The notes under the pieces are model-generated. The model was not told the DNA's origin. It was given only the letters and a program-made list of their open reading frames with translations, and did no database searches. Below, one piece after another: positions 4,045 through 38,392 of a stretch of DNA of 64,000 nt (positions are counted from its first letter, which is position 1; each line of letters starts with the position of its first letter). The DNA comes from a candidate division TM6 bacterium GW2011_GWF2_28_16. GTDB taxonomy: Bacteria; Patescibacteriota; Microgenomatia; UBA1400; PJMF01. The position numbers were made by a program, and so were the translations under genes. The stretch lies in contig CP011212.1 of NCBI GenBank assembly GCA_001029715.1, positions 617,715 through 681,714 of the forward strand. Reading direction: 5' to 3'.

Positions 4045-4150
4045 ACCGAGCTTTGCGACTGAGTTATACGAAGGAGTGTCTGAAGCGTGGGCGGAAGACG
4101 AGAGGGAATGTCTGGAGTGGAGACGGAGGACGAATCCCTTACGTTAAAAA

Positions 4151-4648: not shown

Positions 4649-4702
4649 ATAATCTTACCTTTCAGATGACAGGTTAGCAAAATTCTGCGATATAATAAAG
4701 AG

Positions 4703-5040
4703 GAAGAACGTGGCACTAGGACAATGGATCTTGGTTCGCCAAGATAGGAAAGTCCGGACAACCGAGTAGAGGGTGCCTGACGAAAGTCAGGGATTGTTTT
4801 GGTTAGAGCAGTAATGCTTACTGCCAAAATAAGCCAGTCTAGAGCAACAGAGACGAACCGAGTAGCGTCGGCTGAAACGACCAAGCTTTTGGGTATTTCA
4901 CGCAAGTGGAATGGCAATCCTCCCCGTTGCGAGCTACGACTTTGACCTAAATGGTACTACTCCTTATCATGGTCATAATGTGAGCGCATAGATAAATCAT
5001 TGTCGAGAAACAGAATCCGGCTTACTAAACCACGTTCTTC
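4703..5040 (+). ncRNA. rnpB: RNase P RNA (bacterial type)
   Basis: The conserved AGGAAAGTCCGGAC (P4 region) and ACAGAATCCGGCTTA 3' element are present. The P1 helix GAAGAACGTGG (4703-4713) pairs with CCACGTTCTTC (5030-5040). A TATAAT at 4691-4696 sits just upstream. Confidence 0.8.
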
Positions 5041-5043
5041 ACT

Positions 5044-6558
5044 TTAAAGAAAAAAATCCCTAAAATTAAAGGCCTCCAGCACATCTTCTTTTTGAATCGT
5101 TTTTTTCTCTGCCAAATCCGCAATCGTTCTGGCTACTTTGAAAAGTTTGAAATAACCACGAGTGGATAATTTTTGGTGACTAGCCATTAGATCAAGAATT
5201 TTCTTGGCTTCTGTGGAAATCTCACAAAAATGTAAGACTGCCTGTGAATCTAAATTTGAATTATTAAGAAAAGCTGTTTTAGCGTAGCGTTGACGCTGTA
5301 GGGCAACTGCTCTCTCAACTCTTTTTTTGATCTGCAAAGAACTTTCCGCTCTATTCTCAACCATTTCCTTAATTTCGATCGCCTCAATCCTCAACATTAA
5401 GTCAATACGATCAAGAATCGGACCAGAAAATCTACTGCGATAGCGTTGCAGATCATATTCGCTACAACGACATTTATGTTTGCTACCAGCAAAACCGCAG
5501 GGACAAGGATTGCTGGCAGCAACCAGAGTAAAATTAGCTGGATAAATACATCTCTGCTTGCCACGATTGATTTCAATCAAGCCAGTTTCCAAAGGTTGAC
5601 GTAACATTTCTATAAGTTGGTGTTTAAATTCGGCAAATTCATCTAAAAATAAAATTCCCCGATGCGCCAAACTAATTTCTCCTGGCGTCTGATAAAAACC
5701 GCCGCCAATTAAAGCGATTTGCGAAATGCTTTGATGAGGCGAACGAAAAGGGCGACTGCTAAGCAAAGAATTTTGTAGTAAACCACAGAGCGAATAGATA
5801 CGATTCACTTCTAGAAATTCCTCTTCGCTTAAATCTGGCAAAATCGATAGTAAAGCCTGAGCTAATAAACTTTTGCCAGAACCAGGCGAGCCAAACATCA
5901 GGAGATTGTGTCCGCCAGCCGCCACAATTTCCAAAGCTTTCTTTGCCTGCGCGTGACCAAAAATATGAGCAAAATCTATTTGCTTAGTTTGCAAGTTAAT
6001 CAGTTTTTGAGAAGGCATAGCTTTGCGCAGACTCAAGCACCCACGCGTAAAAGCCAAAAACTCCTGCAAAGAAACCAGCGGATAAAACTCTAAATTACTA
6101 ATTTTTGGCAACTCACCTACATTTTCACGAGGAAAATAGATCTTTTTAAAACCCATAGTTCGCGCCGCTAAAACAATGGAGACAAAACCTTTGATTTTTC
6201 GCAATCTTCCATCGAGAGCTAACTCACCCAGAAATAAAGAATCTTCGGTATTAAAAGTCACTTCGCCATATAATTTCAGCATCGCCACAGCGATAGCCAA
6301 CTCAACACTGCTAGATTTTTTATCCAAATCTGCTGGTGCTAGATTGACCACTGTTTTCTTCGGTCTAATCCTAATTCCACATTGCGAAAGGGCAGCCGTG
6401 ATGCGTTCTCTAGATTCATCGATCACCCGATTAGCCAAGCCAATAATAATAAAAGAAGGCTTGCCAAAAATAGTTTTAATCTCAACTTCAATCTTAATTG
6501 TCTCAAGACCTTTATTGACTGCACTAAAAATTCTGCCCGACATAAAAATGCTCCTCAA
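5044..6558 (-). CDS. comM: YifB/ComM-family Mg-chelatase-like AAA+ ATPase
   Basis: N-terminal Lon-like/ChlI domain and Walker A GSPGSGKS. The CPCG…C…C zinc motif and a C-terminal Mg-chelatase ChlI region are present. Confidence 0.85.
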   Translation of the reverse strand: MRSIFMSGRIFSAVNKGLETIKIEVEIKTIFGKPSFIIIGLANRVIDESRERITAALSQCGIRIRPKKTVVNLAPADLDKKSSSVELAIAVAMLKLYGEVTFNTEDSLFLGELALDGRLRKIKGFVSIVLAARTMGFKKIYFPRENVGELPKISNLEFYPLVSLQEFLAFTRGCLSLRKAMPSQKLINLQTKQIDFAHIFGHAQAKKALEIVAAGGHNLLMFGSPGSGKSLLAQALLSILPDLSEEEFLEVNRIYSLCGLLQNSLLSSRPFRSPHQSISQIALIGGGFYQTPGEISLAHRGILFLDEFAEFKHQLIEMLRQPLETGLIEINRGKQRCIYPANFTLVAASNPCPCGFAGSKHKCRCSEYDLQRYRSRFSGPILDRIDLMLRIEAIEIKEMVENRAESSLQIKKRVERAVALQRQRYAKTAFLNNSNLDSQAVLHFCEISTEAKKILDLMASHQKLSTRGYFKLFKVARTIADLAEKKTIQKEDVLEAFNFRDFFL

Positions 6559-6637
6559 ACAATATTTTAAAGAAGCAAGGCTACAAGAAGTGTAGGAAGG
6601 GTGAAATTACTGCGAAATCTGCTATCATATTAGAATA

Positions 6638-7894
6638 ATGCCAAGTGAACTTATCTATCGACTCAAGAGACCTTATCATTTCTTCAAAACTGGCCTAATC
6701 AAGGGACTACCGGCCCGCATCAAATATCTTTTCCCAGATAAGAAACTCAAGATTATCGCCATTACTGGCACTGACGGTAAGACCACTTCTTCAACTTTGC
6801 TTTATCATTTACTTCAAGAAAGCGGCAAAAAAGTCGCTTTAATTTCTACTGTTGGCGCCTATATCGGTGATCAAAAAATTGAGACTGGCTTTCACGTCAC
6901 TAGCCCTAGTCCAGATCAGCTTTTTGCTTTCATGAGAAAGATGCTCCAAGAAAAAACTGAATACTTGGTCTTAGAATTCACTTCTCAAGGAGCTTATCAG
7001 TATCGTCTTTTTGGTATCAAGCCTTTGATCGCTGGCATTACCAATGTCGATCAAGATCATTTTGACTATCATCTCAATTACCAAAACTATCTGGAGGCCA
7101 AAGCCAGTGTCATGCAAAAAGCCAAGACAGTCGTCCTCAATGAAGACGATCAGTCATATTATCGCCTCAAAAAGCTTTTCCCTAGCAGTCAATATAATGT
7201 CTTGGAATATAGCCAAGAACAAAAATTAAATGCCAAAATTGAGCGCGCTATCAAAGAACGTTTTCCAGAGGCTTTTAACCAAAATAATGCTCGTTTGGTA
7301 AGCACCATTGCTTTGGAAATTGGTTTAGACGAAAAAGAAATTAGCCAATCATTAATTAGCTTTCAAGGAGTACCAGGCAGAATGCAATTTATCGAGAACA
7401 CCAAAGGTATTAAAATCGTTGTGGATTTCGCCCACACTCCGCAAGGTTTGCGCAGCGCTTTAACTGCTCTTCGTTTCATCATGAAGAAGGACAAGGTGAA
7501 TGGCGAAGCCAGAGAAGGTGCCCTAGGGCACAAGTTGCCAGGCAGACTAGTCGCTGTTTATGGCTGCGCTGGTCTTCGTGATGCCATCAAAAGACCAATG
7601 ATGGGGGAGATCGGTGCAGAGTTAGCTGACTTACTAGTTTTTACCGCTGAAGATCCACGTACTGAGGATATTTGGTCAATCATTCGACAAATGAAAGAGT
7701 CTTTAACTACTGGCCACGATAAAATTTCCTCTATTCCAAATCGCCAAGATGCCATTGATTTCGCTATCCAAAAACTAGCCAAAAGAGGCGATCTTGTCGC
7801 TATTTTTGGCAAAGGCCCAGAGCAAAGTATGTGCTACGGCACAGAGGAAATCGCTTGGAGTGATGAGGCGGCAGTTAAAAAAGCACTTAAATAA
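6638..7894 (+). CDS. murE: Mur-ligase family enzyme, most likely UDP-MurNAc-tripeptide synthetase (MurE-type) lacking the N-terminal domain
   Basis: ITGTDGKTT P-loop of Mur ligases and a central plus C-terminal Mur ligase domain. It lies directly upstream of murC. Confidence 0.65.
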   Translation: MPSELIYRLKRPYHFFKTGLIKGLPARIKYLFPDKKLKIIAITGTDGKTTSSTLLYHLLQESGKKVALISTVGAYIGDQKIETGFHVTSPSPDQLFAFMRKMLQEKTEYLVLEFTSQGAYQYRLFGIKPLIAGITNVDQDHFDYHLNYQNYLEAKASVMQKAKTVVLNEDDQSYYRLKKLFPSSQYNVLEYSQEQKLNAKIERAIKERFPEAFNQNNARLVSTIALEIGLDEKEISQSLISFQGVPGRMQFIENTKGIKIVVDFAHTPQGLRSALTALRFIMKKDKVNGEAREGALGHKLPGRLVAVYGCAGLRDAIKRPMMGEIGAELADLLVFTAEDPRTEDIWSIIRQMKESLTTGHDKISSIPNRQDAIDFAIQKLAKRGDLVAIFGKGPEQSMCYGTEEIAWSDEAAVKKALK

Positions 7895-7895
7895 T

Positions 7896-9278
7896 ATGGC
7901 ATTTCTAGACGCAAATAACTTCTACTTAGTCGGCATCAAAGGGGTTGCCATGACTTCCGTTGCTCAATGTTTGCTGGACGCGGACAAAACAGTGCGCGGT
8001 TCCGACATTGAAGAAGATTTTGTAACTGAAAAAATTCTTACCGAATTAGCAATCGAGATTGATAACATTTCTACCATTCCAAATTTTACTGAATTAAAAA
8101 TCGACGCGCTCATTTACACCGCTGCTCATCAGGGTGTGGATAACCCTCAAGTTAGAACCGCCATTGAAGCTGGCATTTCTGTTTATTCCCAAGCCGAAGC
8201 TTTGGCTGAATTTTTCAACCAAAAACAAGGCATTGCAGTTTGTGGAGTAGGGGGCAAAAGTAGCGTTTCCGCGATGATTAGTTTTGTTTTGGATAAACTA
8301 GCTCCCGAGCAATTATCTTTTTCCGTAGGCGTCGGTGAAATTATTGGCATGCCAAGAACTGGCCAGTGGAAAAATGAAGCTAAATATTTCGTTGCCGAGG
8401 CTGATGAATACGTCATCGATCCTCACGCTATCGAAAAAGGTGAAACACTCAGACCTAGATTTTCCTTCCTCAATCCTTTCATAACTATCTGTACCAATCT
8501 GAAATATGATCATCCAGATGTTTATAAAAACTTTGGCGAAACCAAAGCTACATTCAGCAAATTTTTTAGTCAAATTAAAAGCAATGGCTTTCTAATCATC
8601 AACGGCGACAATCAAGATTTAGTCGATTTAGCTAAACAAAGCGTCGGCTCTGACATTAAAATTCTGACTTTTGGCGAAAAAACTAATTGTGATTTCAGAC
8701 TCCAAGATTTTGACTTTGACCTCCAAGTCCCAGGTAAATTCAATCTCATGAACGCCCTCGCAGCATTAGCCTGTATTGCTCAACTTGGTTTCAGTGATCA
8801 AAAAATTATTAGCGCCCTCAAGGAATTCAAATCAACCAAACGCCGCTTCGAACTGATTGAAAAAACTGCAGAATATTCGCACTTTGACGACTACGCCCAT
8901 CATCCTTCAGAAATTTTAGCGGTCATTGATACTCTCAATGAAAAATTTGGCGACGAGAAAAAACTCATTTCCTTCCAACCTCACACTTTCTCTCGCACTA
9001 GAGAGCTGTTCAGTCAATTCGTTGATTCCTTAGCCATGCATACTAAGCCAAACGACGAAATTCTCCTGATCGACATCTTCCCCTCAGCCCGCGAAGCCTA
9101 CGACCCAGACATGAGCTGCGACAAACTAGCCGCCGCCGTCAAAAACAAATATCCAGAATGTAAAATCCAAAATCTCAAAGATGTCGAAGGCTTAGCCGAC
9201 TACGTCAAAAACCACCCACACAAAATCTTCATCACCATCGGCGCCGGCAACATCTACCACGCCCATGAATTAATCTAA
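7896..9278 (+). CDS. murC: UDP-N-acetylmuramate--L-alanine ligase. The true start is probably the ATG at 7896, which overlaps the murE stop; the ORF-track start at 7794 is an upstream extension.
   Basis: MurC N-terminus (YLVGIKGVAMTSVAQ), the GxGGKSS P-loop and a C-terminal Mur ligase domain. Confidence 0.8.
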   Translation: MAFLDANNFYLVGIKGVAMTSVAQCLLDADKTVRGSDIEEDFVTEKILTELAIEIDNISTIPNFTELKIDALIYTAAHQGVDNPQVRTAIEAGISVYSQAEALAEFFNQKQGIAVCGVGGKSSVSAMISFVLDKLAPEQLSFSVGVGEIIGMPRTGQWKNEAKYFVAEADEYVIDPHAIEKGETLRPRFSFLNPFITICTNLKYDHPDVYKNFGETKATFSKFFSQIKSNGFLIINGDNQDLVDLAKQSVGSDIKILTFGEKTNCDFRLQDFDFDLQVPGKFNLMNALAALACIAQLGFSDQKIISALKEFKSTKRRFELIEKTAEYSHFDDYAHHPSEILAVIDTLNEKFGDEKKLISFQPHTFSRTRELFSQFVDSLAMHTKPNDEILLIDIFPSAREAYDPDMSCDKLAAAVKNKYPECKIQNLKDVEGLADYVKNHPHKIFITIGAGNIYHAHELI

Positions 9279-9336
9279 TTGATCTTAAAATTACTCTCAA
9301 AAGCTTCGCCAAGGAGTGATATAATTTCAACGTTAA

Positions 9337-9420
9337 GCCGCGATGGCGGAATTGGTAGACGCGCGAGACTTAAAATCTCGTACTAGCGATAGTGTAAGGG
9401 TTCGATTCCCTTTCGCGGCA
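9337..9420 (+). tRNA. tRNA-Leu (anticodon UAA), long variable arm
   Basis: Acceptor stem GCCGCGA/TCGCGGC and anticodon loop CTTAAAA. A long extra arm is present and the T-loop is GGTTCGATTCC. An extended -10 (TGATATAAT, 9316-9324) lies upstream. Confidence 0.85.
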
Positions 9421-9469
9421 CGACTCTAGGGGCAAGATCACAAGTCTCGCCCCTAGATCAAATTAAAAA

Positions 9470-9543
9470 CGGAGAGTAGTTCAGATGGCTAGAACGTACG
9501 CTTTGGGAGCGTAAGGTCGCAGGTTCGAGTCCTGTCTCTCCGA
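9470..9543 (+). tRNA. tRNA-Pro (anticodon UGG)
   Basis: Acceptor stem CGGAGAG/CTCTCCG, anticodon loop TTTGGGA and T-loop GGTTCGAGTCC. Confidence 0.85.
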
Positions 9544-9550
9544 CAAATAC

Positions 9551-9580
9551 AAAAAAGCTGGCTATATGCCAGTTTTTTTG
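9551..9580 (+). terminator. Rho-independent terminator after tRNA-Pro
   Basis: AAAAAAGCTGGCtatatGCCAGTTTTTTT. Confidence 0.7.
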
Positions 9581-9727
9581 TATTTATTGGTGGAGGCAAA
9601 GGAGTCGGAACTATTTTAAGGTTCCGACGGAGAGAACGAGTTTTTTGTAAAACGAGTTCCCTCCTAGCACTCGAAGAGTGGAGTCCTACAAAAACCCAAA
9701 TCTCAAATCATAGTATAATTATCACAA

Positions 9728-10519
9728 ATGATTGAAGACAATTCATCTAAACAAGTTAACTCAGAAAAAGGTCATAAACTTAAAAAAATAATTTGGCCAA
9801 TACATAAAGAACAATACGAAGAAATTAACTTTTCTTCGATTACTGGTTTAAAAGAAATAGAAGCAAAACAAAAATCCATAGATGAAATTAATAATTTTTT
9901 AATTGACATTTTGCAATTTGCTCAAACAGTATTAAGCACGCCTGGTCCAAATACCCTACATATTAGTGCAGAACTAGATATTGATGTTGTCGCAACATTT
10001 TCTATTGATGATGAAGGAATTCCGCAGATAGATCTCTCAAAAATCTATTATGATTCCATCATAAATCATATCTCTCTTATTTTAAGCAAAAAATATTCGC
10101 CTGATAAAATAGTTAGTTTTGGAGAAAACGAAGAAATCAAAGAGATTTTTAAAATAGGAGTTGGTTTGGTTGTTTCTCAAGTTGTCTCTTCTTTAGGTCA
10201 TGAAATGTACCACTTGCGACAGGCTCATCAAGATTATGAATCTTATCAAGAAACTGTACAAGAAAACTGGCCACATCGTTTTTGGCGAGAAAGAGCAAAA
10301 GCAACCAATAATGCAGAACTAAAAAATCATGGAATGGATGTCTATAAAAATTCTTTAGGAGAGCGATCTGCAAACGGCTTTGCACTTAGATTTGTTTTGG
10401 AATACAAGAAAAAAATACTTGCCAAAAATGATAAAGATAGGTCTTTAATTGAAAAACTATTTTTATCTGGTGTAGATAAGGCCATTGAGATCTTCAAAAA
10501 AGATTTTATAAAAAATTAA
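9728..10519 (+). CDS. Hypothetical protein with an HExxH (zincin-like) motif. It is the first gene of an AT-rich three-gene block.
   Basis: LGHEMYHLRQAH motif, no signal peptide, and very low GC with AGA/ATA-rich codon usage unlike the flanking murC and ABC genes. Confidence 0.5.
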   Translation: MIEDNSSKQVNSEKGHKLKKIIWPIHKEQYEEINFSSITGLKEIEAKQKSIDEINNFLIDILQFAQTVLSTPGPNTLHISAELDIDVVATFSIDDEGIPQIDLSKIYYDSIINHISLILSKKYSPDKIVSFGENEEIKEIFKIGVGLVVSQVVSSLGHEMYHLRQAHQDYESYQETVQENWPHRFWRERAKATNNAELKNHGMDVYKNSLGERSANGFALRFVLEYKKKILAKNDKDRSLIEKLFLSGVDKAIEIFKKDFIKN

Positions 10520-10640
10520 CTCCTAATTTTTTATAACTTTTAAAAGTCTCCATTAATTGCAGAGTCCTACAATTTCCCTCACACCCTTGAATCACAAGGC
10601 TAAACCATCTACTATATTTGTAGTTACAATAAAGGTACTG

Positions 10641-12416
10641 ATGGCAATAATGGATGAGCTCCAAATAAATCAACAAAAAGAACCTGAAAAAAAAGTTGCT
10701 GGGGAAGATTTTTTTGCTCGTGAAGCCGTACTTATTCAAGATTTTGCCTCAGGTCTACCAGTAACATTCGAGCCTGGAGATGGCTGGCAAATCGATCCAG
10801 ATAAAGGGAAAGCCAACTATGATCCAAAATTTTTTACTGACAAAGGCTATTCACAATCTCAGACACTGTTTGCCACCCTACACGAAGTAGATCATTTTAA
10901 AGAAGCTACTCAGGCTAAAAAATCACCAAAAGATAAAGCTATTTGGGAAGCGCGACAAGAAAAAGAGCAGGCTAATCGTCGCTACCATTCACTGGATAAC
11001 TGCATAGATGATGTTGGCAACAATTATCGTGTTTTACAATTTGCTCCTGCACTAAAAGAAGAAACCAGGCGACTGTATGCTGAACAATTGACTAAGAGCA
11101 CAGACCTAACCAAACATTCTAGACACATGCAGTTGGCCTACGCCATCTTACGTCAAGGGATGTTGCCTCAAGATCAGATTCAAGTTGCAGAGGAAGTTGA
11201 ACAAGCACTCCAAGAACTAAAAAATGTTAAAGGGAAAAAAGGTAGCTACGACATAATTAAAATGGTCACTGATCCTAATTGCAACCCAGCCACCAAAAGG
11301 AAACTAACTGAAAAATATATTGATCCGATTTTTGATAAATTATTCGAACAAGATAAAAATGATAAACAGAAAAACAAAGACAACGATCCCAATCAACAAA
11401 ATAATGATAACCAAAGTAATTCAGAGGAAGATTTCACAGATGAATATGATGAATTTGACGAATCAATGCCGCAGGGATTTGAACAAGAACAAATAGAATC
11501 CGTTTCTAAACCAGAATTTGGTAAAGACATCGCTGCTCGTCAACAATCAGGATACGAGGCTGAACATCAAGTGTCACAAAAAGATATGCTTGATTACAAA
11601 CAAGAATTTCAAAAAGTTATTCAATATATGGAACCTATCAGAGAACAATTTAGAAGAATTGTCGCAGAGCGTTTGATTCCTAAACGTAGACTTATTTCTG
11701 GTCGTGATGAAGGAATTATGATTAATCCCGGTTTAGCGGGGATTGCGCAAGAAGCTTTCAATAGAGGTCAATATGATGGACCATTTTTTAATGATTTTGA
11801 GGGCAGAGTTGTACGAGAAGAACTACCATCAGCATTTGAAATTTCTGGAGTATTTGATCGTAGCGGATCGATGGCATCTGGTAACAGAATTGAAGAACAA
11901 AGAAGGGCGGCTATATTACTAATGGAATCTCTACAAGAATTCATGGATCAACCAGAAGTTAAAGAAAGACTCTTAGACCCAGATCTATATGCTTCATGTG
12001 AAATAAGGTCTTTTGGTGGAACGAAAGAAAATGTGGTTATCAAACCTTTCTCAAAAGAATTAGCTGAGAAACAAAGAATTGAAGTCTTTAAAGTTTTAAA
12101 TGATTGCTCTGGATGGTCTACCGATGACGATGTTTCTCTTGGACAAATATTAGATGAGATGAAAGCCAGAGAGCAGTTTGAGACAGGATATTTAAATAAA
12201 GTAAAAACTAGGAAAATTAAAAAAATAGTGGCTGTTTTTTCTGATGGTGGAAGTTCAAACCAAACAGTTTTCGATCAGAGAATACAAACACTTTCTGAAA
12301 TGGGCGTACAAGTCGTCCAGTATCGAAAAATTGATGGAGTAACTGAATTTGTACCAAAAATGTCAGAAGTTCTTAAACAAGGGTTGGATGAACTCTGCTA
12401 TCATGAAGAAAGGTAA
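10641..12416 (+). CDS. vWA (MIDAS) domain protein with an N-terminal HExxH putative metallopeptidase domain (DUF2201_N/DUF2201-like architecture). The ORF-track start at 10557 probably over-extends the N-terminus.
   Basis: An N-terminal LHEVDHF motif and a low-complexity acidic/N-rich linker. The C-terminal vWA has a MIDAS DRSGSM (DxSxS) motif plus downstream T and D positions. An ATG at 10641 is preceded by AAAGG. Confidence 0.6.
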   Translation: MAIMDELQINQQKEPEKKVAGEDFFAREAVLIQDFASGLPVTFEPGDGWQIDPDKGKANYDPKFFTDKGYSQSQTLFATLHEVDHFKEATQAKKSPKDKAIWEARQEKEQANRRYHSLDNCIDDVGNNYRVLQFAPALKEETRRLYAEQLTKSTDLTKHSRHMQLAYAILRQGMLPQDQIQVAEEVEQALQELKNVKGKKGSYDIIKMVTDPNCNPATKRKLTEKYIDPIFDKLFEQDKNDKQKNKDNDPNQQNNDNQSNSEEDFTDEYDEFDESMPQGFEQEQIESVSKPEFGKDIAARQQSGYEAEHQVSQKDMLDYKQEFQKVIQYMEPIREQFRRIVAERLIPKRRLISGRDEGIMINPGLAGIAQEAFNRGQYDGPFFNDFEGRVVREELPSAFEISGVFDRSGSMASGNRIEEQRRAAILLMESLQEFMDQPEVKERLLDPDLYASCEIRSFGGTKENVVIKPFSKELAEKQRIEVFKVLNDCSGWSTDDDVSLGQILDEMKAREQFETGYLNKVKTRKIKKIVAVFSDGGSSNQTVFDQRIQTLSEMGVQVVQYRKIDGVTEFVPKMSEVLKQGLDELCYHEER

Positions 12417-12421
12417 CTTTT

Positions 12422-14854
12422 ATGCAAGACATTAATGGAGAAATATCTCAACCATTTGCACCAGGTATATATCGAAAACTAGAAACGGCAGCTGGATCAA
12501 TAAAATCATTATTTGAATCAAAAATTAAAACGGAAAGCTCATCTAGCACAGTTGAAGAGCGAGCTAATACTTTACTCCAGTTATTATTAGATAAAGTTGA
12601 GCTACAAGTTGATATTGCTCGTCGAGCAACAACAATTGTGGATGCTTTAGGTCTAGATGGAAGTGCTCGCCAAAGAAAACTACAAGAACTTAAGTCATTA
12701 AATAATCAATCTTCAATAAATGAAAATAAGAACTCTAATGAGAGTCAATTGTCCGCAGCGAATATAAACGAAGCAGATATTGTAAGTGGTAAATTATCGA
12801 TGTCTGACTTAATGAAAAGTATTAAAACAACTCCAAAGACTGAAGGCATCAATTCACAAACAGAGCAAGAAAACCAGCTTTTAGCGGAGAGTAAAAGACA
12901 ATTATCTAAAATAAATGAACAGGCTGAAATACTAATAAACGATACTCAGGTTGTTGAGCATTATCAAAACATGCACCAAGAAAAACTAAAACTATACCGT
13001 AAAGTCAGAGAAGCGGCTTCTGGCAAGAAAGCTATTCGAGATATTGAAATCATGCAAGAGAGATTAGCTAGACAAGTTTTTCTAAATAAACGCACTTTTT
13101 CTCCTGCTGAAGAAGCGGTTACTAAACAAAATCAATTAATTTCAAAGGCGATTGAAAAACGCATTGCCGACCTTATATCAGATCCTGAGGTTTTTGATTT
13201 AATGAGATGGCGACAATTGAGAGAATATCAAATCGGTCTAAAAAAAGACAGATTTGCCGAAACTCCAAGCAGAACAAAAATGTTAGCTGAAATTAGGCAA
13301 ATGTGGTCAGAAGGTAGAAAAGTTTTAGCTACTGGTCCAACTGGAAGTGGTAAAACAGAATTATTTTTTCATGCTTCAAGATCTTTGCTTGGTAGCGAAC
13401 CAGAAAGAGCTACTGGTCATGAACTATTAACTTCATATGAAATATATGGCAAAGCTACTGGTAAAGGGTTTGAGCCAGGACCACTCACAAGAGCTATTGA
13501 TAACAATAAACCTTTTGTGTTGGACGAAATTAATCTAGTACCAAATAAAATTTTAATGCGTTTAAAGACTGATCTTAATGCTAGACCAGGGCAAGAAATA
13601 ACTATTCAAGAAGAAAATGGAGTGCGACATCAAGTCAAAGATAATTTCGTGGTTGGCGCCACAGCCAACGTAAAAAGCGAAAAACATCCAGATCGAGAAA
13701 AACTTGATCCAGCCCTAGTGCGTATGTTTGAACCGCTTCCAGTTGATTACCTACCACCAGAAGAATTGCACGACATGATGCTAGCTCTATTAATGGATAT
13801 AAAAGGTGGTATTCAGCTTTCAAGCAAAGATGATTTAGCTGCCTTAGCTGAACTATGTATGTCCACTACATGGACGCAAAAAGCGTATCAAGGATATGAA
13901 GTTGAATTAAATAACGGTGACAAACTCTATGCTCGCGGTGGGGAATCTACTGGCAAAATAGCCACACTAAGAGAAGCTGTTCTCGATCCAGGCAAAGCAC
14001 TGGATATGGTTAATGGTTGGGATGATTCAAGATTGAAGGGTAAAACACTTAGAGAACATATTAATGCCAAAATTATTCAATTTGTTAAAAACGAAAACTT
14101 TCCTGAAGAAGATCGTTATCACTTAATCCGCATTTTCGCCTTAAATGAATTTTTGAAAGGAGTAGACGTTAATGAGCTAGGAATTAGCGGCCTAGATCAA
14201 GCTACTTTAGATGCTTGGAATGGCTTCACTGGTCGTAAAGTGAAAGCAGGAGATTTATATCTCGATGCCAATAAAGTCGCCAAAATTGATCCTTTCGGAA
14301 CCGTAAGAAGGCCTGATGGGTCAGACGTTGATGATCTACTTGGCGAAGATGAAACAGAAGAAATGGAAGATGAGGACATAGACGAAGAAAACCATCTTGC
14401 GATTGGAATAAAAGCATTTGAGCAAAGAAGAAGAGAGAAAAACCAATCTACACAAATTGATCCAGAGGCAAAAGAAATTCTCGATCAACTAGATAAATCT
14501 GAGCTAAAAAAATTTCTAAAACGTGAAGATAAATATCAAATTTATCCAGACAAACTCAATGATATATATCTTATGTATCCATCTACTTTAGAAGAAATCA
14601 TAAGAAAATATAGAGAAATATTCTTTGACCAAGATACTCAGGAAAATATAGGCAATGTGTTCGATTTATTGAAAAGGTTTATAATACTAGTTAAAGAAAT
14701 AAAACAATCTAATGTTAATTTTCCAAAAGATGTAATGATAATTGCGAAAAAAACAGATAGTATTTTAGAAACATCTAATAGTGCATCTACAATGCCTACC
14801 ACTAGAGAAATGTGTGAAAAACTTGTCAAACAAATTTTTGAGCTAGCTAAGTAG
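12422..14854 (+). CDS. Large AAA+ ATPase of the MoxR/AAA_5 (dynein-related) class, partner of the upstream vWA protein
   Basis: The central AAA module has Walker A GPTGSGKT, Walker B FVLDEIN and sensor/arginine finger-like positions. A ~300-aa N-terminal coiled-coil/low-complexity region and a ~350-aa C-terminal extension with the acidic tract DDLLGEDETEEMEDEDIDEEN flank it. Confidence 0.65.
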   Translation: MQDINGEISQPFAPGIYRKLETAAGSIKSLFESKIKTESSSSTVEERANTLLQLLLDKVELQVDIARRATTIVDALGLDGSARQRKLQELKSLNNQSSINENKNSNESQLSAANINEADIVSGKLSMSDLMKSIKTTPKTEGINSQTEQENQLLAESKRQLSKINEQAEILINDTQVVEHYQNMHQEKLKLYRKVREAASGKKAIRDIEIMQERLARQVFLNKRTFSPAEEAVTKQNQLISKAIEKRIADLISDPEVFDLMRWRQLREYQIGLKKDRFAETPSRTKMLAEIRQMWSEGRKVLATGPTGSGKTELFFHASRSLLGSEPERATGHELLTSYEIYGKATGKGFEPGPLTRAIDNNKPFVLDEINLVPNKILMRLKTDLNARPGQEITIQEENGVRHQVKDNFVVGATANVKSEKHPDREKLDPALVRMFEPLPVDYLPPEELHDMMLALLMDIKGGIQLSSKDDLAALAELCMSTTWTQKAYQGYEVELNNGDKLYARGGESTGKIATLREAVLDPGKALDMVNGWDDSRLKGKTLREHINAKIIQFVKNENFPEEDRYHLIRIFALNEFLKGVDVNELGISGLDQATLDAWNGFTGRKVKAGDLYLDANKVAKIDPFGTVRRPDGSDVDDLLGEDETEEMEDEDIDEENHLAIGIKAFEQRRREKNQSTQIDPEAKEILDQLDKSELKKFLKREDKYQIYPDKLNDIYLMYPSTLEEIIRKYREIFFDQDTQENIGNVFDLLKRFIILVKEIKQSNVNFPKDVMIIAKKTDSILETSNSASTMPTTREMCEKLVKQIFELAK

Positions 14855-14874
14855 TCTTTAAATATAAATCAATT

Positions 14875-16638
14875 ATGTCCATCTTTCTCCGCCTCTACCG
14901 CTTCATCTGGCGACGCAAATGGCTCTTCATCATCGGCACTATCCCCATGATCCTAGCCCTCGTCCTCAGCAACCTCTCTCCATTCTTCGTCAAATGGCTA
15001 ACTCAAGCTGTTCAAGACGGCCAACTCGACCACGCCTTTAACCTCGTTCTCATTTTTGGCCTCGTCCTAGTCGCTAGCAACCTACTTGAAAACATTGGCT
15101 TCTTCATCACTGACAAAAACATGGTCGGCACCTCCACCGACATTTCCCATGCCGTCCTCACTCATATCCACAACCTAGACTTTGCCTATCACACCAACAA
15201 AAGCTCCGGCAGACTCATCAGTCTTATGAAAAGGGGCGACGACGCCTTTTTTACCTACTACGACATTGTTAACCGCCAATTTTTAGGCATTATCATCAGT
15301 TTCGCTGTCATGTTTACTGCTTTCGCACGCCTCCGTTATGACTACTTACTTTTTGCAAGCTGTCTTCTTATCATTACCATTCTCGTCGCCTTTTTTCTGA
15401 TCAAAATCAACATCCGCAAGCGTATTCTTTTCAATAATGCTGACGATGACGTCTCTTCGGCTAGAGTAGACAACTTAGTCAATTTCGACACCGTCAAATA
15501 TTTCGCCAATGAAAAATTCGAGCAAAAACGTTTTTCTAACCTGCTCAACATTTGGAATAAACGCCTCCAAGATTACTTCTTCACTTTCCGTTATTTTGAC
15601 GGCATCGTCGGTAATCTAATTAATATTTCTTTGGTCGGTATTATGTTTCTAGCAGTTCGTGATCTGCGCAGCGGACAAATTGTCCTAGCAGATTTCCTCT
15701 TAGTAACTACTTTTTCGATGACCCTTTTTCCCAAAATGATGCACCTACTTTTTAGTCTCCGTGAATTAGCCAAAAAACACACTGATATCTCTACCTATTT
15801 AAACTTACTCGACGAAGAAGTCTCCGTCAAAGATCCAGTTAATCCGCAAAAAATCGAGTCCGTAAAGGGAGAAATCACTTTCGACCAAGTCGGCTTTGCC
15901 TACGAAAACAAACAGTTAGTTTTGGAAGATTTTTCTCTGAATATTAAAAGTGGCGAAGCCATCGCTCTGGTCGGTTTTTCCGGCGCCGGCAAAACCACTA
16001 TCGCTAAATTACTGATGCGTATGTACGACCCAACCCAAGGTAAAATCTTAATTGACGGTGTAGAAATTAACAACTTACGCAAAGATGATTTACGCAAAAT
16101 GGTCGGTGTCGTTCCTCAAGATCCTTTGCTATTTAATAACACTGTTTATTTCAACATTTCCTACGCTAATCACCAAGCCAGTAAAGAAGAGGTCCTTGCT
16201 GCTTCCAAAGCCGCTCAGGTCGATGTTTTTATCAAAGACCTTCCTAACGGCTATGAAACCATCGTCGGAGAACGTGGCATTAAATTATCTGGTGGTCAAA
16301 GACAACGCCTCGCTATCGCTAGAGTTCTCCTAGAAAAACCAAAAATTATTGTCATGGACGAAGCCACTAGCTCACTCGATAGTGCTTCAGAAAAAATCAT
16401 TCAAGAAGCTTTCTGGGATCTAGTTAAAGATAAGTATAATCCTCGCACCAGTATCATCATTGCTCATCGCCTTTCCACTATCATGCAAGCCGATCGCATC
16501 GTCGTCATGGATGACGGCAAAATCGCCGAAGTCGGCAGCCACCAAGAACTTATCGATAAAGACGGCGGCATCTACCAAAGACTCTGGTCACTGCAGAAGA
16601 ATGGGTTTATAGGCGACGGAGAGGACGAATCTTCATAA
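14875..16638 (+). CDS. ABC transporter, fused permease/ATPase (MsbA/exporter type)
   Basis: Six-TM N-terminal domain and Walker A GFSGAGKTT. The ABC signature LSGGQRQRLAIARVL, Walker B IIVMDEATS and the H-loop are present. This gene is visibly more GC-rich than its neighbours. Confidence 0.9.
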   Translation: MSIFLRLYRFIWRRKWLFIIGTIPMILALVLSNLSPFFVKWLTQAVQDGQLDHAFNLVLIFGLVLVASNLLENIGFFITDKNMVGTSTDISHAVLTHIHNLDFAYHTNKSSGRLISLMKRGDDAFFTYYDIVNRQFLGIIISFAVMFTAFARLRYDYLLFASCLLIITILVAFFLIKINIRKRILFNNADDDVSSARVDNLVNFDTVKYFANEKFEQKRFSNLLNIWNKRLQDYFFTFRYFDGIVGNLINISLVGIMFLAVRDLRSGQIVLADFLLVTTFSMTLFPKMMHLLFSLRELAKKHTDISTYLNLLDEEVSVKDPVNPQKIESVKGEITFDQVGFAYENKQLVLEDFSLNIKSGEAIALVGFSGAGKTTIAKLLMRMYDPTQGKILIDGVEINNLRKDDLRKMVGVVPQDPLLFNNTVYFNISYANHQASKEEVLAASKAAQVDVFIKDLPNGYETIVGERGIKLSGGQRQRLAIARVLLEKPKIIVMDEATSSLDSASEKIIQEAFWDLVKDKYNPRTSIIIAHRLSTIMQADRIVVMDDGKIAEVGSHQELIDKDGGIYQRLWSLQKNGFIGDGEDESS

Positions 16639-16699
16639 GAAGACGAGGCCCCCGCCTAGTGCTCGTAGAGCGGGATGGGGAGGATGAGTAAATCGCCAC

Positions 16700-17848
16700 C
16701 TACCAACCTGTAATCTCTATTTCATCATCAGTTTGTGGTGACTTAATGCCGTTATTTTCTGCTAGTGTCTTTGACACAAATTCCTCACTGCTGTATTCTT
16801 CAATTTTCTTTTTATAAAATAAAACGTCGCTTTCTATTCTTTCCAATAATTGTGCTTTCGCCTCCTCTTTATTATCCAATTTTGCCAAAGCAATGGGCCT
16901 GAGTCTATCAATCATTGCTAATTTTCTTTGATAAGACAAGATGTTATTTTCAATTGCCTCTCTGGTTTTTGGTTTCCAGTCTTCTTCAGAAGCACTACGG
17001 TTAACAATATTAAAAAACATTGGGGTAAAATAATTTTGTATTAAATCACTCTGCGATTTTTCTTGTTTTGCATCTCCGACATAATCAAATGAGTTAATAA
17101 AATCAATAAATCCAAACCCTGATTTTTCATCATACATTATATTTTTACTCTTATTTTCCATTGGTAGACCTCTTTGCCAGGCAATTAATAAACTGTCGAA
17201 ACATTGATTAATCTGTTCATCGCTGATATTCTCTACCACATCTGGGTTTAATTTGTTCAGTTGTTGGCCGGGTATTTTTTCAGCAATTGTGACCCCATCT
17301 TCTACTGAAGCAGCTACAATCTGTTCAAAATGTTCTTCACCATCAATATATAAAGCACCCATCATATAAGCTCCTACATCACCTGGGCTTGGTCGATATC
17401 TCATCACATACTCTTTGCCGCTAATCACAACATTAAAAACATTTTGGGCAATATGAGCCTGATGACCTCTTATATCTTCAAGCTGTTTAATTTGCTGTAA
17501 AAAATCTCTTACCTCAGATTGGTATTGTTTGTAATTATTTAATCGCTGCTCCATATAACGAATAATTCGCTCTTTTTCTTCACCCAACGAATCCAAAAAT
17601 TGCTTATATTCTTCTGCCGATACTACATTGATGATGTCGCCCAACTTCATTTCTCTTCTTTCCCATCCATGATTCTTTATATCGTCTTTATTAACCTCAT
17701 AACTAATCCCCAGAAATGCTGCTCGAACAGCATTGCCCACGATATCGCTATAAATACGCTCTCTGTCACCATATTTAACTTCGTTATGACTGGCAAATCC
17801 CACCAATTTAGCTACATTGTAATTTTGATCTTCATTCATGTATTTCAA
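16700..17848 (-). CDS. Hypothetical protein with a possible degenerate protein-kinase-like (APH-like) fold
   Basis: AT-rich. The segment …NIMYDEKSGFGFIDF… resembles the catalytic-loop/DFG region of the APH/choline-kinase fold, but it lacks the HxD catalytic residues. Confidence 0.3.
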   Translation of the reverse strand: MKYMNEDQNYNVAKLVGFASHNEVKYGDRERIYSDIVGNAVRAAFLGISYEVNKDDIKNHGWERREMKLGDIINVVSAEEYKQFLDSLGEEKERIIRYMEQRLNNYKQYQSEVRDFLQQIKQLEDIRGHQAHIAQNVFNVVISGKEYVMRYRPSPGDVGAYMMGALYIDGEEHFEQIVAASVEDGVTIAEKIPGQQLNKLNPDVVENISDEQINQCFDSLLIAWQRGLPMENKSKNIMYDEKSGFGFIDFINSFDYVGDAKQEKSQSDLIQNYFTPMFFNIVNRSASEEDWKPKTREAIENNILSYQRKLAMIDRLRPIALAKLDNKEEAKAQLLERIESDVLFYKKKIEEYSSEEFVSKTLAENNGIKSPQTDDEIEITGW

Positions 17849-17925
17849 TTATGCCATAGTTTTTAGCAAACTTCAGTTATTTACTTAACCAGCTTTAGCA
17901 TAAAGCCAATGCTATACTAAAATAT

Positions 17926-18705
17926 ATGTCCAAAAATATCCTCATCACCGGAGCCTCCAGCGGAATTGGCAAAGCAGTCGCTTTGGAATTCGCTAAAAAA
18001 GACGGCTCCAAAAATCATTTAATCTTAGTGGCTCGCAATCAAGCTAAACTTGAGTTAGTCGCCGAAGAAGCCAGAGTTCTCGGTGCGACGGTTAGCACCT
18101 TCATTGCTGATCTTGGCAAAACCGCCGACATCGCCAAACTCTTTACTGATCTAGGAGAGAAAGTTGAAACTCTAGATCTGGTTTTCAATAATGCTGGCCT
18201 TGGTTTTGTCAAAGAGGTTCATCTTTTAAGTGATGACGAAATCGAGCAGATCATTGACGTTAACGTCAAAGGTATGATGTTAGTTGCCAAAAAAGCCACT
18301 CAAATGATGATTAAACAAGGTTATGGTCACATCATTTTTACTTCTTCTTTGGCAGGCTACGTTTTGCTCCCAACTTGGTCAGTTTACTGTGCCAGCAAGT
18401 GGGGTATCACTGCTTTTGCCAATGTTTTGCGCCAAGAAGTGGCCAAGCATGGCATCAAGGTCACCACTGTCCATCCTGGGCCAGTTAAGACCGAGTTTTT
18501 CGACCCAAACAAGGCCGATGTTGACCTAAGTAAAAGTGCTAAAACCATGCCGGCTATTCCAGCTAGTGACGTCTCAGCAGCAATTTACAAAATCGCCTAC
18601 ACTGATAAGCAAAGAATTTTCTGCCCACCTTCTTTGGTGGTCGCCGCAGAAGCTTTTAGATTCTTTCCTAATTTCATGCAAAAAATGTTTGCCAAAATGA
18701 CCTAA
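17926..18705 (+). CDS. Short-chain dehydrogenase/reductase (SDR) family oxidoreductase
   Basis: TGASSGIGKA Rossmann motif, NNAG, and the catalytic S…YxASK (YCASKWG). Confidence 0.9.
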   Translation: MSKNILITGASSGIGKAVALEFAKKDGSKNHLILVARNQAKLELVAEEARVLGATVSTFIADLGKTADIAKLFTDLGEKVETLDLVFNNAGLGFVKEVHLLSDDEIEQIIDVNVKGMMLVAKKATQMMIKQGYGHIIFTSSLAGYVLLPTWSVYCASKWGITAFANVLRQEVAKHGIKVTTVHPGPVKTEFFDPNKADVDLSKSAKTMPAIPASDVSAAIYKIAYTDKQRIFCPPSLVVAAEAFRFFPNFMQKMFAKMT

Positions 18706-18753
18706 ATGGTTTTGATGAACTTTCTTGCAAACTAGCTCTGTTATAAAAAAACA

Positions 18754-20232
18754 GTGTCTAGCGATTATGAAGTTCTGGCAATTACCACTTTGCAAAAATA
18801 CTTTGGCTTTAACAATTTTAGGCCAGGTCAATTGGCGATTATCACTGCCATTCTAGAAGGCAAAAACGTCTTGGCAATTTTACCAACTGGCGGTGGCAAA
18901 TCCATTTGTTTCCAAGTGCCGGCTCTCGCTCTGGATGGAACTGCTCTGGTAATTTCACCGCTCATTTCCCTAATGAAAGATCAGGTCGATCACTTGGAAG
19001 AGAAGGGCATTAACGCCAGTTACCTGAGTAGTAATTTAGAAAAAGCAGAAATTACTTTGCGTCTAAAAAAGCTGGCTGAAGGAAAATATAAAATCTTTTA
19101 TTTAGCACCAGAGAGATTGGCTAATCAAAAAATTATCGATATTTGCCAAAAAATAAAAATCTCTCGCCTCATCATCGACGAAGCTCATTGCATTAGTTTG
19201 TGGGGTCATCAGTTCCGTCCGAACTATCAAAAAATTCCCCAATTTGTCGAAAAAATTCAAAAAAAATCAGAAAAAATTGCTTTAGCCGCCTTTACAGCTA
19301 CTGCCACTAGCATGGTCAGTGTAGAAATTAAGAATTTTTTAGAATTAGAAAAAGCGACTGTTTTTAGTGGCGGTTTTTTGCGTAAAAATTTAATTTTTCA
19401 CAATTTAATTTGTGACTGCATTTGGACTAAAAATATCTATTTATTTAAGCTGCTTAAAGTCCACCAAAGTGAAAATATTATTATTTATTGCTGTACGAGA
19501 GTAGAGTGTGAGCGTTTGCTGAGACTCATTAAACATTATGATTTTAGCAATCGCTACCAGATAGATATTTATCATGGCGGATTAGACAAAGACAAAAGGG
19601 AAAACTGTCAAAATGATTTTCTAAGCGGCAAAATTAAAATTATTATTGCCACCAACGCCTTTGGTATGGGCGTCGATAAAAGCGATGTCCGCGTAGTTAT
19701 TCATTATCAAATTTCTGCCAATTTAGAAAATTATTATCAAGAAGCTGGACGTGCCGGTCGCGATGAAAAATTGAGCTATGCCTATTTGCTCTATAGTGAA
19801 AAGGATTTATTAATTCAAGCTGAAATGATTAATAAAAATTATGAAGATTTAGATAATCCAAGAAGAAAAATTGAAATTTCTAAACTTAAAACTATCAAAA
19901 ACTATACCATCAGTCGAAGCTGCTTACAAGAAAAAATTATTAAATATTTTGGACAAAACGAATCAGCTTCACTCTGTCAAAATTGCCATCATTGTCTCCA
20001 AAGAAAAATCGAATTAGACGAAAAAGAACAACAATTTATTCAAAAATTAGAACGAATCAATCAACTCTACCTAGAAAAATGTGATACTGAAAGTCTGCCT
20101 AATCTTTTTACTATTAAACAAATGGAGCTGATGGCGATTTTGGAAGTCAGAACCTTCAGCGAATTAAAAAAGATTCCTGGAGTCGGAAGTGGTATAATAA
20201 GCTTCTATGCAAATCAAAGAATTAGTGGCTAA
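18754..20232 (+). CDS. recQ: ATP-dependent DNA helicase RecQ (short form without the HRDC domain)
   Basis: RecQ N-terminus (…QKYFGFNNFRPGQLAIITAIL…PTGGGKSICFQVPAL), the DEAH box (IDEAHCISLWGH), helicase C and the RQC zinc-binding cysteines. Confidence 0.85.
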   Translation: MSSDYEVLAITTLQKYFGFNNFRPGQLAIITAILEGKNVLAILPTGGGKSICFQVPALALDGTALVISPLISLMKDQVDHLEEKGINASYLSSNLEKAEITLRLKKLAEGKYKIFYLAPERLANQKIIDICQKIKISRLIIDEAHCISLWGHQFRPNYQKIPQFVEKIQKKSEKIALAAFTATATSMVSVEIKNFLELEKATVFSGGFLRKNLIFHNLICDCIWTKNIYLFKLLKVHQSENIIIYCCTRVECERLLRLIKHYDFSNRYQIDIYHGGLDKDKRENCQNDFLSGKIKIIIATNAFGMGVDKSDVRVVIHYQISANLENYYQEAGRAGRDEKLSYAYLLYSEKDLLIQAEMINKNYEDLDNPRRKIEISKLKTIKNYTISRSCLQEKIIKYFGQNESASLCQNCHHCLQRKIELDEKEQQFIQKLERINQLYLEKCDTESLPNLFTIKQMELMAILEVRTFSELKKIPGVGSGIISFYANQRISG

Positions 20233-20563
20233 GTATCAAGAAATTGCTGACTTCTTAAATACCCGCTGGCCTCTCAAAGATCATAATCAAAGAGTCTTCG
20301 CTCGTACCATGAAAATCGTCGAGGAATTAGGTGAATTGGCTGATGAAATTCTAACTAGCATGAACTTGCAACGCAATTCAAAAATCGCTAAATTTTCCAG
20401 AGAGAATTTGGAGGATGAATTTGCCGACGTTTTAGGTTCTTTAATTTTGCTCGGTTGTGAATTAGAAATTGACGTCGAAGCCATCATCCAGAAAAAAATT
20501 GATTTCACCCGCGAACGTTTTGAAATGGATAAAGATAAAAAAGATCAAAGCTCCAAAAACTGA
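20207..20563 (+). CDS. MazG-like nucleoside triphosphate pyrophosphohydrolase
   Basis: EExGExxDE…EDEFADVL motif pattern of the all-alpha NTP-PPase family. Confidence 0.65.
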   Translation: MQIKELVAKYQEIADFLNTRWPLKDHNQRVFARTMKIVEELGELADEILTSMNLQRNSKIAKFSRENLEDEFADVLGSLILLGCELEIDVEAIIQKKIDFTRERFEMDKDKKDQSSKN

Positions 20564-38360: not shown

Positions 38361-38392
38361 GTTTAATGTTAAAGATTTCAATCAAACAAAAG

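Follow-up and report, generated by a model that had tools for sequence, protein, structure and literature searches.

A large MoxR/AAA_5-class ATPase with a variable C-terminal tail and a co-inherited HExxH-vWA partner gene in a candidate phyla radiation bacterium

The window analyzed here, a 64,000-nt stretch of the genome of a candidate phyla radiation (CPR) bacterium (contig CP011212.1, positions 617,715 to 681,714), contains a gene encoding an 810-aa ATPase of the MoxR/AAA_5 class and, directly upstream, a gene encoding a 591-aa protein that carries an HExxH domain and a vWA domain with a MIDAS motif. Co-inheritance of the two genes holds throughout a family that comprises hundreds of sequence clusters. 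In sister clades, the variable C-terminal end of the ATPase is a C-type-lectin-like module hypermutated by an adjacent diversity-generating retroelement (DGR), whereas in the clade of the window it is a fast-diverging helical bundle. With moderate confidence, we read the pair as a switch in which the ATPase would act as sensor and motor and the partner as adaptor and effector, akin to the MoxR-vWA conflict systems and to the fusions of AAA ATPases with C-type lectin modules (AAA-CLec) that DGRs target in CPR bacteria.

The ATPase open reading frame (ORF) runs uninterrupted from its ATG through its stop codon and starts 5 nt past the stop codon of the partner gene; it has a Shine-Dalgarno-like sequence, GAAAGG. 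The encoded protein matches, over its full length and with 100% identity, the hypothetical protein UT13_C0001G0636 of Candidatus Pacebacteria bacterium GW2011_GWF2_38_9 (853-kb contig); the identical 810-aa sequence is present under four NCBI accessions (different assemblies) and on 6 contigs, and a fifth assembly encodes the ATPase with one residue changed. A 29-sequence alignment showed 28 homologues (660–920 aa, 36–84% identity) to be collinear with it across the N- and C-terminal regions. Relative to a close orthologue (locus L011), the ratio of nonsynonymous to synonymous substitution rates (dN/dS) was 0.04–0.07 for residues 143–635 and 0.23 for residues 1–142, with a range of 0.04–0.23 for every part of the protein but its tail. 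An AlphaFold2 (AF2) model built on the 29-sequence alignment presented a mean predicted local distance difference test (pLDDT) score of 77.9, with a confident structure prediction for about 640 of the 810 residues. A sequence-only reading of this DNA had described the ATPase as unusually large with long extensions on both sides of its core, and had raised the concern that these extensions might stem from a mis-assembled or frameshifted region. The size is borne out, as NorQ, CbbQ, and CobS chains in the PDB have 268–328 aa and the window ATPase is about three times larger. The extensions are real; identical copies in several assemblies, collinear homologues, and low dN/dS exclude a frameshift or mis-assembly. 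An origin of the extensions as artefacts (mis-assembly, frameshift fusion of neighbouring genes, or read-through into non-coding low-complexity sequence) could draw on residues 92–142 and 636–680, which are compositionally biased and predicted to be disordered; given the same protein in several independent assemblies, the collinearity, the dN/dS values outside the tail, and the share of confidently predicted residues, it is vanishingly improbable.

The features of the two genes, all on the + strand, are as follows.

10641–12416, +: partner gene UT13_C0001G0635, 591 aa from the annotated ATG (100% match); the ORF call begins at a TTG at 10557
10698–11390, +: HExxH domain of the partner, aa 20–250 (pLDDT 88–98), with HEVDHFKE at 10881–10904
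11346–11465, +: D/E/N/Q/K-rich low-complexity linker of the partner, EQDKNDKQKNKDNDPNQQNNDNQSNSEEDFTDEYDEFDES (pLDDT partly low)
11670–11831, +: candidate pore-inserting "finger" or MIDAS loop of the partner, aa 344–397, between a long helix and vWA strand β1
11832–12395, +: vWA domain of the partner with a complete MIDAS motif (DRSGS at 11856–11870; T494 within 12111–12134; D535 within 12234–12254)
12422–14854, +: ATPase gene UT13_C0001G0636, 810 aa; ATG at 12422, stop codon at 14852–14854
12440–12472, +: short motif EISQPFAPGIY (consensus EISxxFxPxLP), aa 7–17, in a predicted disordered segment (pLDDT <50)
12551–12694, +: first long N-terminal helices, aa 44–91 (AF2 helices 44–76 and 81–91; pLDDT 74–79)
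12695–12847, +: S/N/Q/T-rich disordered spacer, aa 92–142 (45% S/N/Q/T; pLDDT 31–57)
12848–13309, +: conserved helical arm before the AAA+ domain, aa 143–296, ending in an invariant FAETPSR motif and helix α0
13310–13756, +: AAA+ P-loop (α/β) subdomain, aa 297–445 (Pfam AAA_5; invariant ATPase residues)
13334–13357, +: Walker A motif GPTGSGKT, aa 305–312
within 13433–13501, +: helix-2 β-hairpin insert (AF2 hairpin 343–352)
13514–13528, +: Walker B motif FVLDE, aa 365–369
within 13655–13732, +: sensor-1 residue N416 and the strikingly conserved post-sensor-1 loop ANVKSEKHPDREKLDPALVRMF
13757–14326, +: lid and additional conserved post-AAA domain, aa 446–635 (pLDDT 80–92)
14327–14461, +: acidic disordered linker, aa 636–680 (38% D+E; pLDDT 41–48)
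14462–14851, +: variable C-terminal helical bundle, aa 681–810 (six predicted helices; pLDDT about 80–90)

The AAA+ module and the conserved extensions of the ATPase

Residues 301–436 of the ATPase matched the Pfam family AAA_5 (PF07728; E 6.4e-11; 42.9 bits versus a cut-off of 22; profile positions 2–139 of 139). Thirteen residues of the module (G305, T307, G308, G310, K311, D368, E369, N416, K418, K421, R425, D429, and R434) are invariant in the 29 sequences, and the Walker A/B signature is retained in distant family members. N416, R425, and R434 are found inside ATANVKSEKHPDREKLDPALVRMF; either arginine is a candidate arginine finger. In the AF2 model, the helix-2 hairpin (strands 343–346 and 349–352) is located between helices 338–342 and 354–360, and a pre-sensor-1 hairpin (strands 392–395 and 401–404) precedes the sensor-1 strand (411–416). 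Each ATPase chain presents a single AAA_5 match and a single P-loop. By sequence and predicted structure, this one AAA+ domain is catalytically intact and belongs to the helix-2-insert (MoxR/midasin/dynein) clade. Scans of the ATPase against NCBIfam yielded spurious low scores only, and scans against PHROGs yielded CobS-like and generic ATPase families only.

Foldseek searches of the PDB, like all fold searches reported here run with full-length models of the ATPase or the partner, placed NorQ (9qh7_E, E 2.2e-9) and CbbQ2 (6l1q_A, E 1.7e-8) first, with about 290 aligned columns and TM scores of 0.72–0.76 over the target; NorQ-NorD vWA complexes (2026) were among these matches, and Rea1 and dynein ranked below NorQ and CbbQ. 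NorQ and CbbQ are only about 250–270 aa long, yet about 290 columns were aligned, and the helical lid therefore occupies part of what had been called the C-terminal extension. The single AAA+ core proposed at residues 290–460 thus stands, but its boundary does not; the P-loop subdomain spans approximately residues 297–445 and the lid reaches beyond it. This NorQ-like module leaves about 300 aa on its N-terminal side and about 250 aa on its C-terminal side. In a profile search of the PDB with the family profile, midasin AAA domains ranked first among the sequence matches, a rank owed to the summing of six domains; taken one domain at a time, midasin reached at best 22–27 bits, versus 25 bits for NorQ. 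We rejected a particular closeness of the AAA core to midasin in sequence as not demonstrable, since the per-domain scores equal that of NorQ.

In the window protein and its nearest relatives, the helix-2 hairpin (13433–13501, aa 338–360) lacks about 10 residues compared with most other members of the clade (a gap in alignment columns 485–494); no length change that would compensate for it was seen in the candidate finger loop of the partner.

The N-terminal region had been described as a coiled coil rich in S, N, Q, and E. An S/N/Q/T-rich disordered segment is indeed present, at residues 92–142 only; a crude heptad scan gave no coiled-coil signal in residues 1–300. Residues 143–296 form long conserved helices (143–172, 175–221, 228–252, 255–276, and 282–296 in the AF2 model; pLDDT 78–94) with a mean pairwise identity of 49% and a dN/dS of 0.056. 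The helices at residues 44–91 presented a mean pairwise identity of 40%. The spacer between these two helical parts varies in length, with large insertions in some homologues. The EISxxFxPxLP motif near the N-terminus is kept in the window-type clade, with P14 conserved at ≥90%, and is missing in distant family members, whose profile matches begin at about position 30–200.

Downstream of the AAA+ module, a single C-terminal region of about 350 aa with a poly-acidic tract had been proposed. The tract (VDDLLGEDETEEMEDEDIDEEN, residues 636–657) is present, and the region consists of three parts rather than one: a conserved domain (446–635), an acidic disordered linker (636–680), and a poorly conserved helical bundle (681–810). 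Residues 446–635 are conserved like the ATPase core (mean pairwise identity of 62% versus 66%; dN/dS 0.065) and gave no Pfam match. The linker opens with DDLL, which corresponds to a family consensus of [DE][DE][LF]L; L639 and L640 are conserved at ≥90%, and distant members likewise keep the motif where their conserved core ends.

The partner protein and the variable tail

The vWA partner that had been anticipated for the ATPase is encoded by the adjacent upstream gene and has a full MIDAS motif. It consists of a zincin-like N-terminal domain, a charged linker, and a C-terminal vWA domain. The N-terminal domain contains an invariant HExxHxxE followed by R, N..D, and H.Q, all shared by distant partners, and the HExxH motif (HEVDH) is invariant in all intact partner copies. 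The topology predicted for this domain (a helix, three strands, the HExxH helix, and further helices) resembles the zincin arrangement, in which case the third metal ligand might be one of the invariant residues E(+3), D, and H. A protein search with an alignment of the N-terminal domain returned nothing and also missed the known relatives, making it uninformative. The loop at residues 344–397 presents many invariant or nearly invariant residues (R344, P347, D356, E357, G358, P363, G364, G376, G388, and P396) despite its low pLDDT; its position corresponds to that of the element II loop of Rea1 (α1 to β1), and by this analogy we infer that it is a candidate finger. The vWA fold of the partner is closest to the midasin MIDAS domain (best structural match) and also matches the NorD vWA domain, and its MIDAS domain may be of the midasin/NorD ring-docking type. 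Neither the ATPase nor the partner has a hydrophobic segment, and both are probably cytoplasmic for this reason.

Wherever a related locus extends far enough to show it, the partner gene adjoins the ATPase gene (seven close, three distant, and all such metagenome loci). At L011, the partner (591 aa, 93% identical) is encoded 5 nt ahead of the ATPase gene, the same spacing that the window shows. Five more distant contigs each contain a 595–639-aa gene (47–58% identity to the partner) directly upstream of the ATPase gene; the two genes overlap by 8 nt in four of these, while at L001 they are separated by a 2-nt gap. Even three very distant members (22–25% ATPase identity) have a homologous partner gene next to the ATPase gene, located upstream at L010 and downstream at L009 and L012. 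The co-evolution of the two proteins, which the sequence-only reading had proposed as a check, was examined by a mirror-tree comparison of pairwise divergences over ten loci (r = 0.99; Mantel p ≤ 0.0002); this value is consistent with a physical partnership and does not prove it, as co-inherited neighbours would show the same. A profile search of 1.84 billion cluster representatives identified 229 with E ≤ 1e-30 and 882 with E ≤ 1e-10. These are mostly 600–1400 aa long, and their matches typically begin in the helical arm and stop near the acidic linker.

One family member presented a disrupted partner gene. At L008 (2982–5995; family member P0033), the partner is split into pieces of 371 aa and 277 aa by a DDE_3 transposase gene, its HExxH motif is degenerate (HELRCH), and more transposases are found on its flanks; this copy of the pair is apparently in decay.

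Of all parts of the ATPase, the tail is conserved least, with a mean pairwise identity of 21% in the clade of the window; across the family, tails range from 33 to 739 aa (median 268) and consist of WG repeats, modules repeated within the tail, or other sequence that Pfam does not match. When four different C-terminal tails were scanned against Pfam, no match was credible. Relative to L011, the tail presented 34% protein identity (dN 0.69, dS 1.5), while the ATPase core is 94–97% identical. Nucleotide identity between the two loci is 91% through the partner and ATPase genes to 14477, drops to about 55% at 14478–14851, and recovers at 14852. The high dS of the tail suggests that it is a swapped-in divergent allele rather than, or besides, a product of positive selection in place; allele replacement by recombination fits this divergence at least as well as positive selection.

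In relatives, the 3' end of the ATPase gene is a target of DGRs. L012 encodes a 1118-aa ATPase followed by an Avd gene, a reverse transcriptase (RT) gene, and the HExxH-vWA partner. A 118-nt template repeat (TR) at this locus matches two regions, each of which ends one of two repeated C-terminal modules of the ATPase (template and variable repeats at L012 5053–5170, 5872–5989, and 6231–6348), and nearly all mismatches between the template and the variable repeats (VR) are at template adenines, the signature of a DGR. A signature-based scan of metagenome contigs identified 17 further family loci among 80 pattern matches; the partner is directly upstream in 10 of the 10 with room to show it. RT and Avd homologues are located beside the 3' end of the ATPase gene at L035, L039, L050, L053, L054/L107, L062/L071, L073, L095, and L097, which represent most of the loci with room downstream of the ATPase, and at all of these but L095 a TR with adenine-specific mismatches is paired to a VR at the ATPase 3' end. 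Nine or more related loci in all have an ATPase 3' end that is hypermutated by a DGR. No RT was found in the window or at L001–L005, L011, L052, and L069. The window protein matched the DGR-linked ATPases by blastp with E 1e-50 to 5e-124 and 31–40% identity over residues ~150–630, from the helical arm to the acidic motif, and these ATPases matched the family profile with E 1e-86 to 1e-192. The tail of the window protein showed no similarity to the tails of its DGR-linked relatives.

Some DGR-linked ATPases (those of L012, L097, and L054/L107) have two tandem C-terminal modules, each with its own VR and with one TR for both. L054/L107 also contains a second target ORF after the ATPase gene.

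The sequence-only reading had suggested that both extensions may mediate recognition of partners or substrates. This is partly supported, at least for the C-terminal one, which behaves like a recognition module in that it is hypervariable, swapped among clades, and DGR-targeted in relatives.

The proposed switch and rival explanations

If the pair works like NorQ-NorD, CbbQ-CbbO, and Rea1, the ATPase would assemble into a ring of six chains. The conserved pre-vWA loop of the partner might insert into the pore of this ring, where it would be gripped by the helix-2 hairpins, and the post-sensor-1 loop may contact the partner. ATP hydrolysis would then twist or pull the vWA domain, such that the linker to the zincin-like domain would be remodelled; the HExxH domain is the presumed proteolytic output, and the variable tail of the ATPase may bind a ligand that gates or directs this action. 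More speculatively, the acidic [DE][DE][LF]L motif may be a MIDAS ligand or docking peptide, with a carboxylate that would complete the metal coordination in an auto-inhibitory or docking arrangement. Comparable elements have been described in studied machines. The MIDAS loop of Rea1 enters the ring pore from element II between α1 and β1 (PMC6624252), and a finger of NorD is located in the NorQ pore and accompanied by linker twisting (PMC13036017); the window ATPase shares with NorQ the conserved post-sensor-1 loop and the helix-2 hairpin, the elements that grip NorD.

The pair also resembles the MoxR-vWA ternary conflict systems described by Kaur et al. 2020 (PMC7159879), in which the third component is of the VMAP, iSTAND, FtsH, or beta-propeller type, an effector (rarely a metallopeptidase) and a DGR-diversified domain are fused to the vWA protein, and the statistical analysis excluded CPR organisms. 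Shared characteristics are the MoxR and vWA core, a putative effector-like domain on the vWA protein, a variable genomic context, and, in relatives, the tie to DGR hypermutation of a ligand-binding domain. Unlike these systems, the family of the window has no conserved third component, its ATPase has large extensions, and it is the ATPase, not the vWA protein, that bears its DGR-diversified module; with the Pfam bpMoxR model, a single distant family member produced a weak match below threshold.

The broad family is already known as a target of DGRs. Passages of Doré et al. 2024 (PMC10907252), citing Paul et al. 2017, describe AAA ATPase-CLec fusions as the commonest architecture of CPR DGR targets and suggest that the ATPase transduces signals sensed by the C-terminal region, and a passage of Wu et al. 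2018 (PMC5758913) reports "Midasin domain" matches in one class (UVR4) of CPR DGR targets. Like these targets, the window ATPase contains the homologous region from the helical arm through the acidic motif; unlike them, its clade has a helical tail in place of a lectin-like VR. These passages of PMC10907252 and PMC5758913 make no mention of the NorQ/CbbQ-type motor structure, the arm, and the post-AAA domain, nor of the obligate HExxH-vWA(MIDAS) partner and the DGR-free clade with a helical tail.

The variable tail, the targeting by retroelements, the patchy distribution with a changing context, and the copy disrupted by an insertion sequence (IS) element speak for a function in biological conflict or in recognizing partners (phage, mobile elements, or host) and not for housekeeping. 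A more specific version, which we put forward only tentatively, is that the pair represents a compact, hitherto unrecognized two-protein immune or recognition switch of CPR bacteria. Its motor would bear a hypervariable antigen-binding end, mutated by retroelements in sister clades and swapped or fast-evolving in the window; once a ligand is bound, the motor would act on the MIDAS-docked partner such that a zincin-type protease is released.

Several observations weigh against the switch reading as a whole. The window tail is a helical bundle without a lectin fold, so that the "sensor" part is carried over from sister clades; an RT, an Avd homologue, and a TR were all not found within the 64-kb window, where the tail presented only chance 11–17-mers as potential template matches; and the divergence of the tail between two close genomes, given its high dS, is compatible with recombination. 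The N-terminal domain of the partner has no sequence relative in Pfam (scans) or the PDB (profile search), and its designation as a zincin-like peptidase relies on the motif and the predicted topology, the fold search with the partner being dominated by its vWA domain. The ring, the complex, and the ATPase and protease activities are predictions, and the roles of the finger and of the acidic motif are drawn from position and conservation. The strong purifying selection on the core in very small genomes fits housekeeping as well. PADLOC defence models gave no match, with sub-threshold P-loop matches only; tblastn searches with the ATPase, a distant ATPase, and the partner revealed no family members in phage or plasmid records; and an IMG/VR scan returned no family members, only generic AAA_5 cores with about 30% identity over residues 298–448. 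The nulls from PADLOC, phage and plasmid records, and IMG/VR neither back nor refute a defence role.

The pair could instead be a dedicated maturation chaperone, like NorQ-NorD, CbbQ-CbbO, RavA-ViaA, or CoxD-CoxE, that inserts metal into or remodels one housekeeping client, with the extensions serving merely as tethers. All experimentally studied bacterial MoxR-vWA pairs act in this manner (PMC13036017), and the pair shares several features with NorQ-NorD and CbbQ-CbbO; the window ATPase has a single AAA+ domain of the same clade with its best structural match (TM 0.75) over NorQ and CbbQ, and its adjoining partner of about 600 aa likewise combines a C-terminal vWA/MIDAS domain, which matches that of NorD, with a linker-joined N-terminal domain. 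The purifying selection on the core and the retention of the pair in an 853-kb genome are in line with a chaperone, as is an ABC exporter gene that follows the ATPase gene after 20 nt, both in the window and in its close relative; however, the exporter adjoins the pair in those two genomes only. No third gene is conserved beside the pair, the flanks differ at every non-sister locus, and no client operon (nor or cbb) is located near it. Sequence identity to NorQ and CbbQ is just 15–18%, and the window ATPase differs from them by its 300-aa N-terminal region, post-AAA domain, acidic linker, and variable tail. A hypervariable tail that is DGR-targeted in relatives would not be expected for a conserved client, and one partner gene is split by an IS element. 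The partner bears an HExxH motif in its N-terminal domain, and NorD, CbbO, and ViaA are not known to have such a domain. We consider this chaperone role unlikely.

The sequence-only reading had likened the extensions, in miniature, to midasin-type AAA/MIDAS machines, and the pair might accordingly be seen as a prokaryotic split-gene relative of midasin/Rea1, in which a single-AAA ring with the MIDAS domain in trans would strip a factor from a ribonucleoprotein, for example a ribosomal precursor. The likeness has limited and indirect support. The family profile finds its best PDB sequence matches in the AAA_5-type domains of midasin, the "Midasin domain" label has been applied to some CPR targets in the passage of PMC5758913, both proteins of the pair have acidic (D/E-rich) low-complexity linkers, and the conserved loop ahead of vWA β1, which could enter the ring pore, has its counterpart in Rea1 element II. 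A 4005-aa protein of a Thermoproteota archaeon (P0133; MFC1753351.1) contains six AAA-core-like stretches and matched the family profile with E 8e-53; its layout is midasin-like, though archaeal. Against this, single-domain midasin scores equal that of NorQ, and Foldseek places NorQ and CbbQ above Rea1 for the ATPase. Midasin has six fused AAA domains versus one per chain here, the MIDAS domain of the window pair is encoded by a separate upstream gene, the acidic or charged linkers are short, a counterpart of the ~1700-aa midasin linker is not detectable in the window protein, and the ATPase extensions have no detectable similarity to the midasin linker or tail. The family of the window is bacterial and patchy, with a hypervariable tail and an HExxH domain; ribosome-biogenesis neighbours are not conserved, and DGR-targeted hypervariable tails and IS disruption are hard to square with essential ribosome assembly. 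A relationship of this type is highly unlikely, and the HExxH domain of the partner together with the hypervariable tail, neither of which the sequence-only reading had noted, moves the reading from a "mini-midasin" towards a sensor-coupled MoxR-vWA switch.

CPR bacteria are rich in DGRs, which according to the passages cited above most often target AAA ATPase fusions without an assigned function. If the two-protein recognition switch were true, these abundant yet functionally opaque AAA-CLec targets would gain a concrete mechanism and an effector. The sensor-motor reading turns a "hypothetical protein" into a testable two-component model in which function stays inferred; it elaborates the known MoxR-vWA logic and represents no new principle, while giving a large family of unexplained CPR proteins an anatomy, a partner, and a mechanism that can be tested. 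The window pair may serve as a DGR-free natural variant for dissecting the core machine.

Genomic surroundings and other observations

A 263-aa ORF (9728–10519) upstream of the pair bears an HEMYH motif and was considered as a third component; this was rejected, as the gene is missing from all other loci, the closest relative included. The ORF had no Pfam, NCBIfam, PADLOC, or PHROG match. Two tRNA genes (9337–9420 and 9470–9543) are located just upstream of it, while L011 (1–902) has the end of a tRNA gene followed by two small genes instead, encoding 101 aa and 90 aa (the latter matching dnstrm_HI1420); given this difference in content, the stretch from the tRNA genes to the cassette is a strain-variable islet.

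Between the window (10572–20533) and L011, nucleotide identity presents a mosaic, with about 75–85% for the ABC exporter, 88–97% for a 382-aa ORF, 62–84% (mostly in the 70s) for the SDR and RecQ genes, and a return to about 90% for a MazG-like gene; this mosaic suggests recombination among related strains. The 382-aa ORF (16700–17848, − strand) had no Pfam, NCBIfam, or PADLOC match, and its identity to L011 is above that of its flanks.

A promoter and terminator scan yielded sites no more numerous than in shuffled sequence, and a scan of genome contigs was swamped by generic P-loop matches, with two unrelated AAA matches. At L010 (GC content of 67%), the pair (3711–9618) is surrounded by two phage-type integrases, a Peptidase_U49 gene, and a TrwB-like gene, suggesting that it is carried by an integrative mobile element in a host outside the low-GC CPR lineages. 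The window also contains a complete bacterial 16S rRNA gene (60069–61556) and four further tRNA genes (at 62462–62535, 38285–38466, and 23369–23439).

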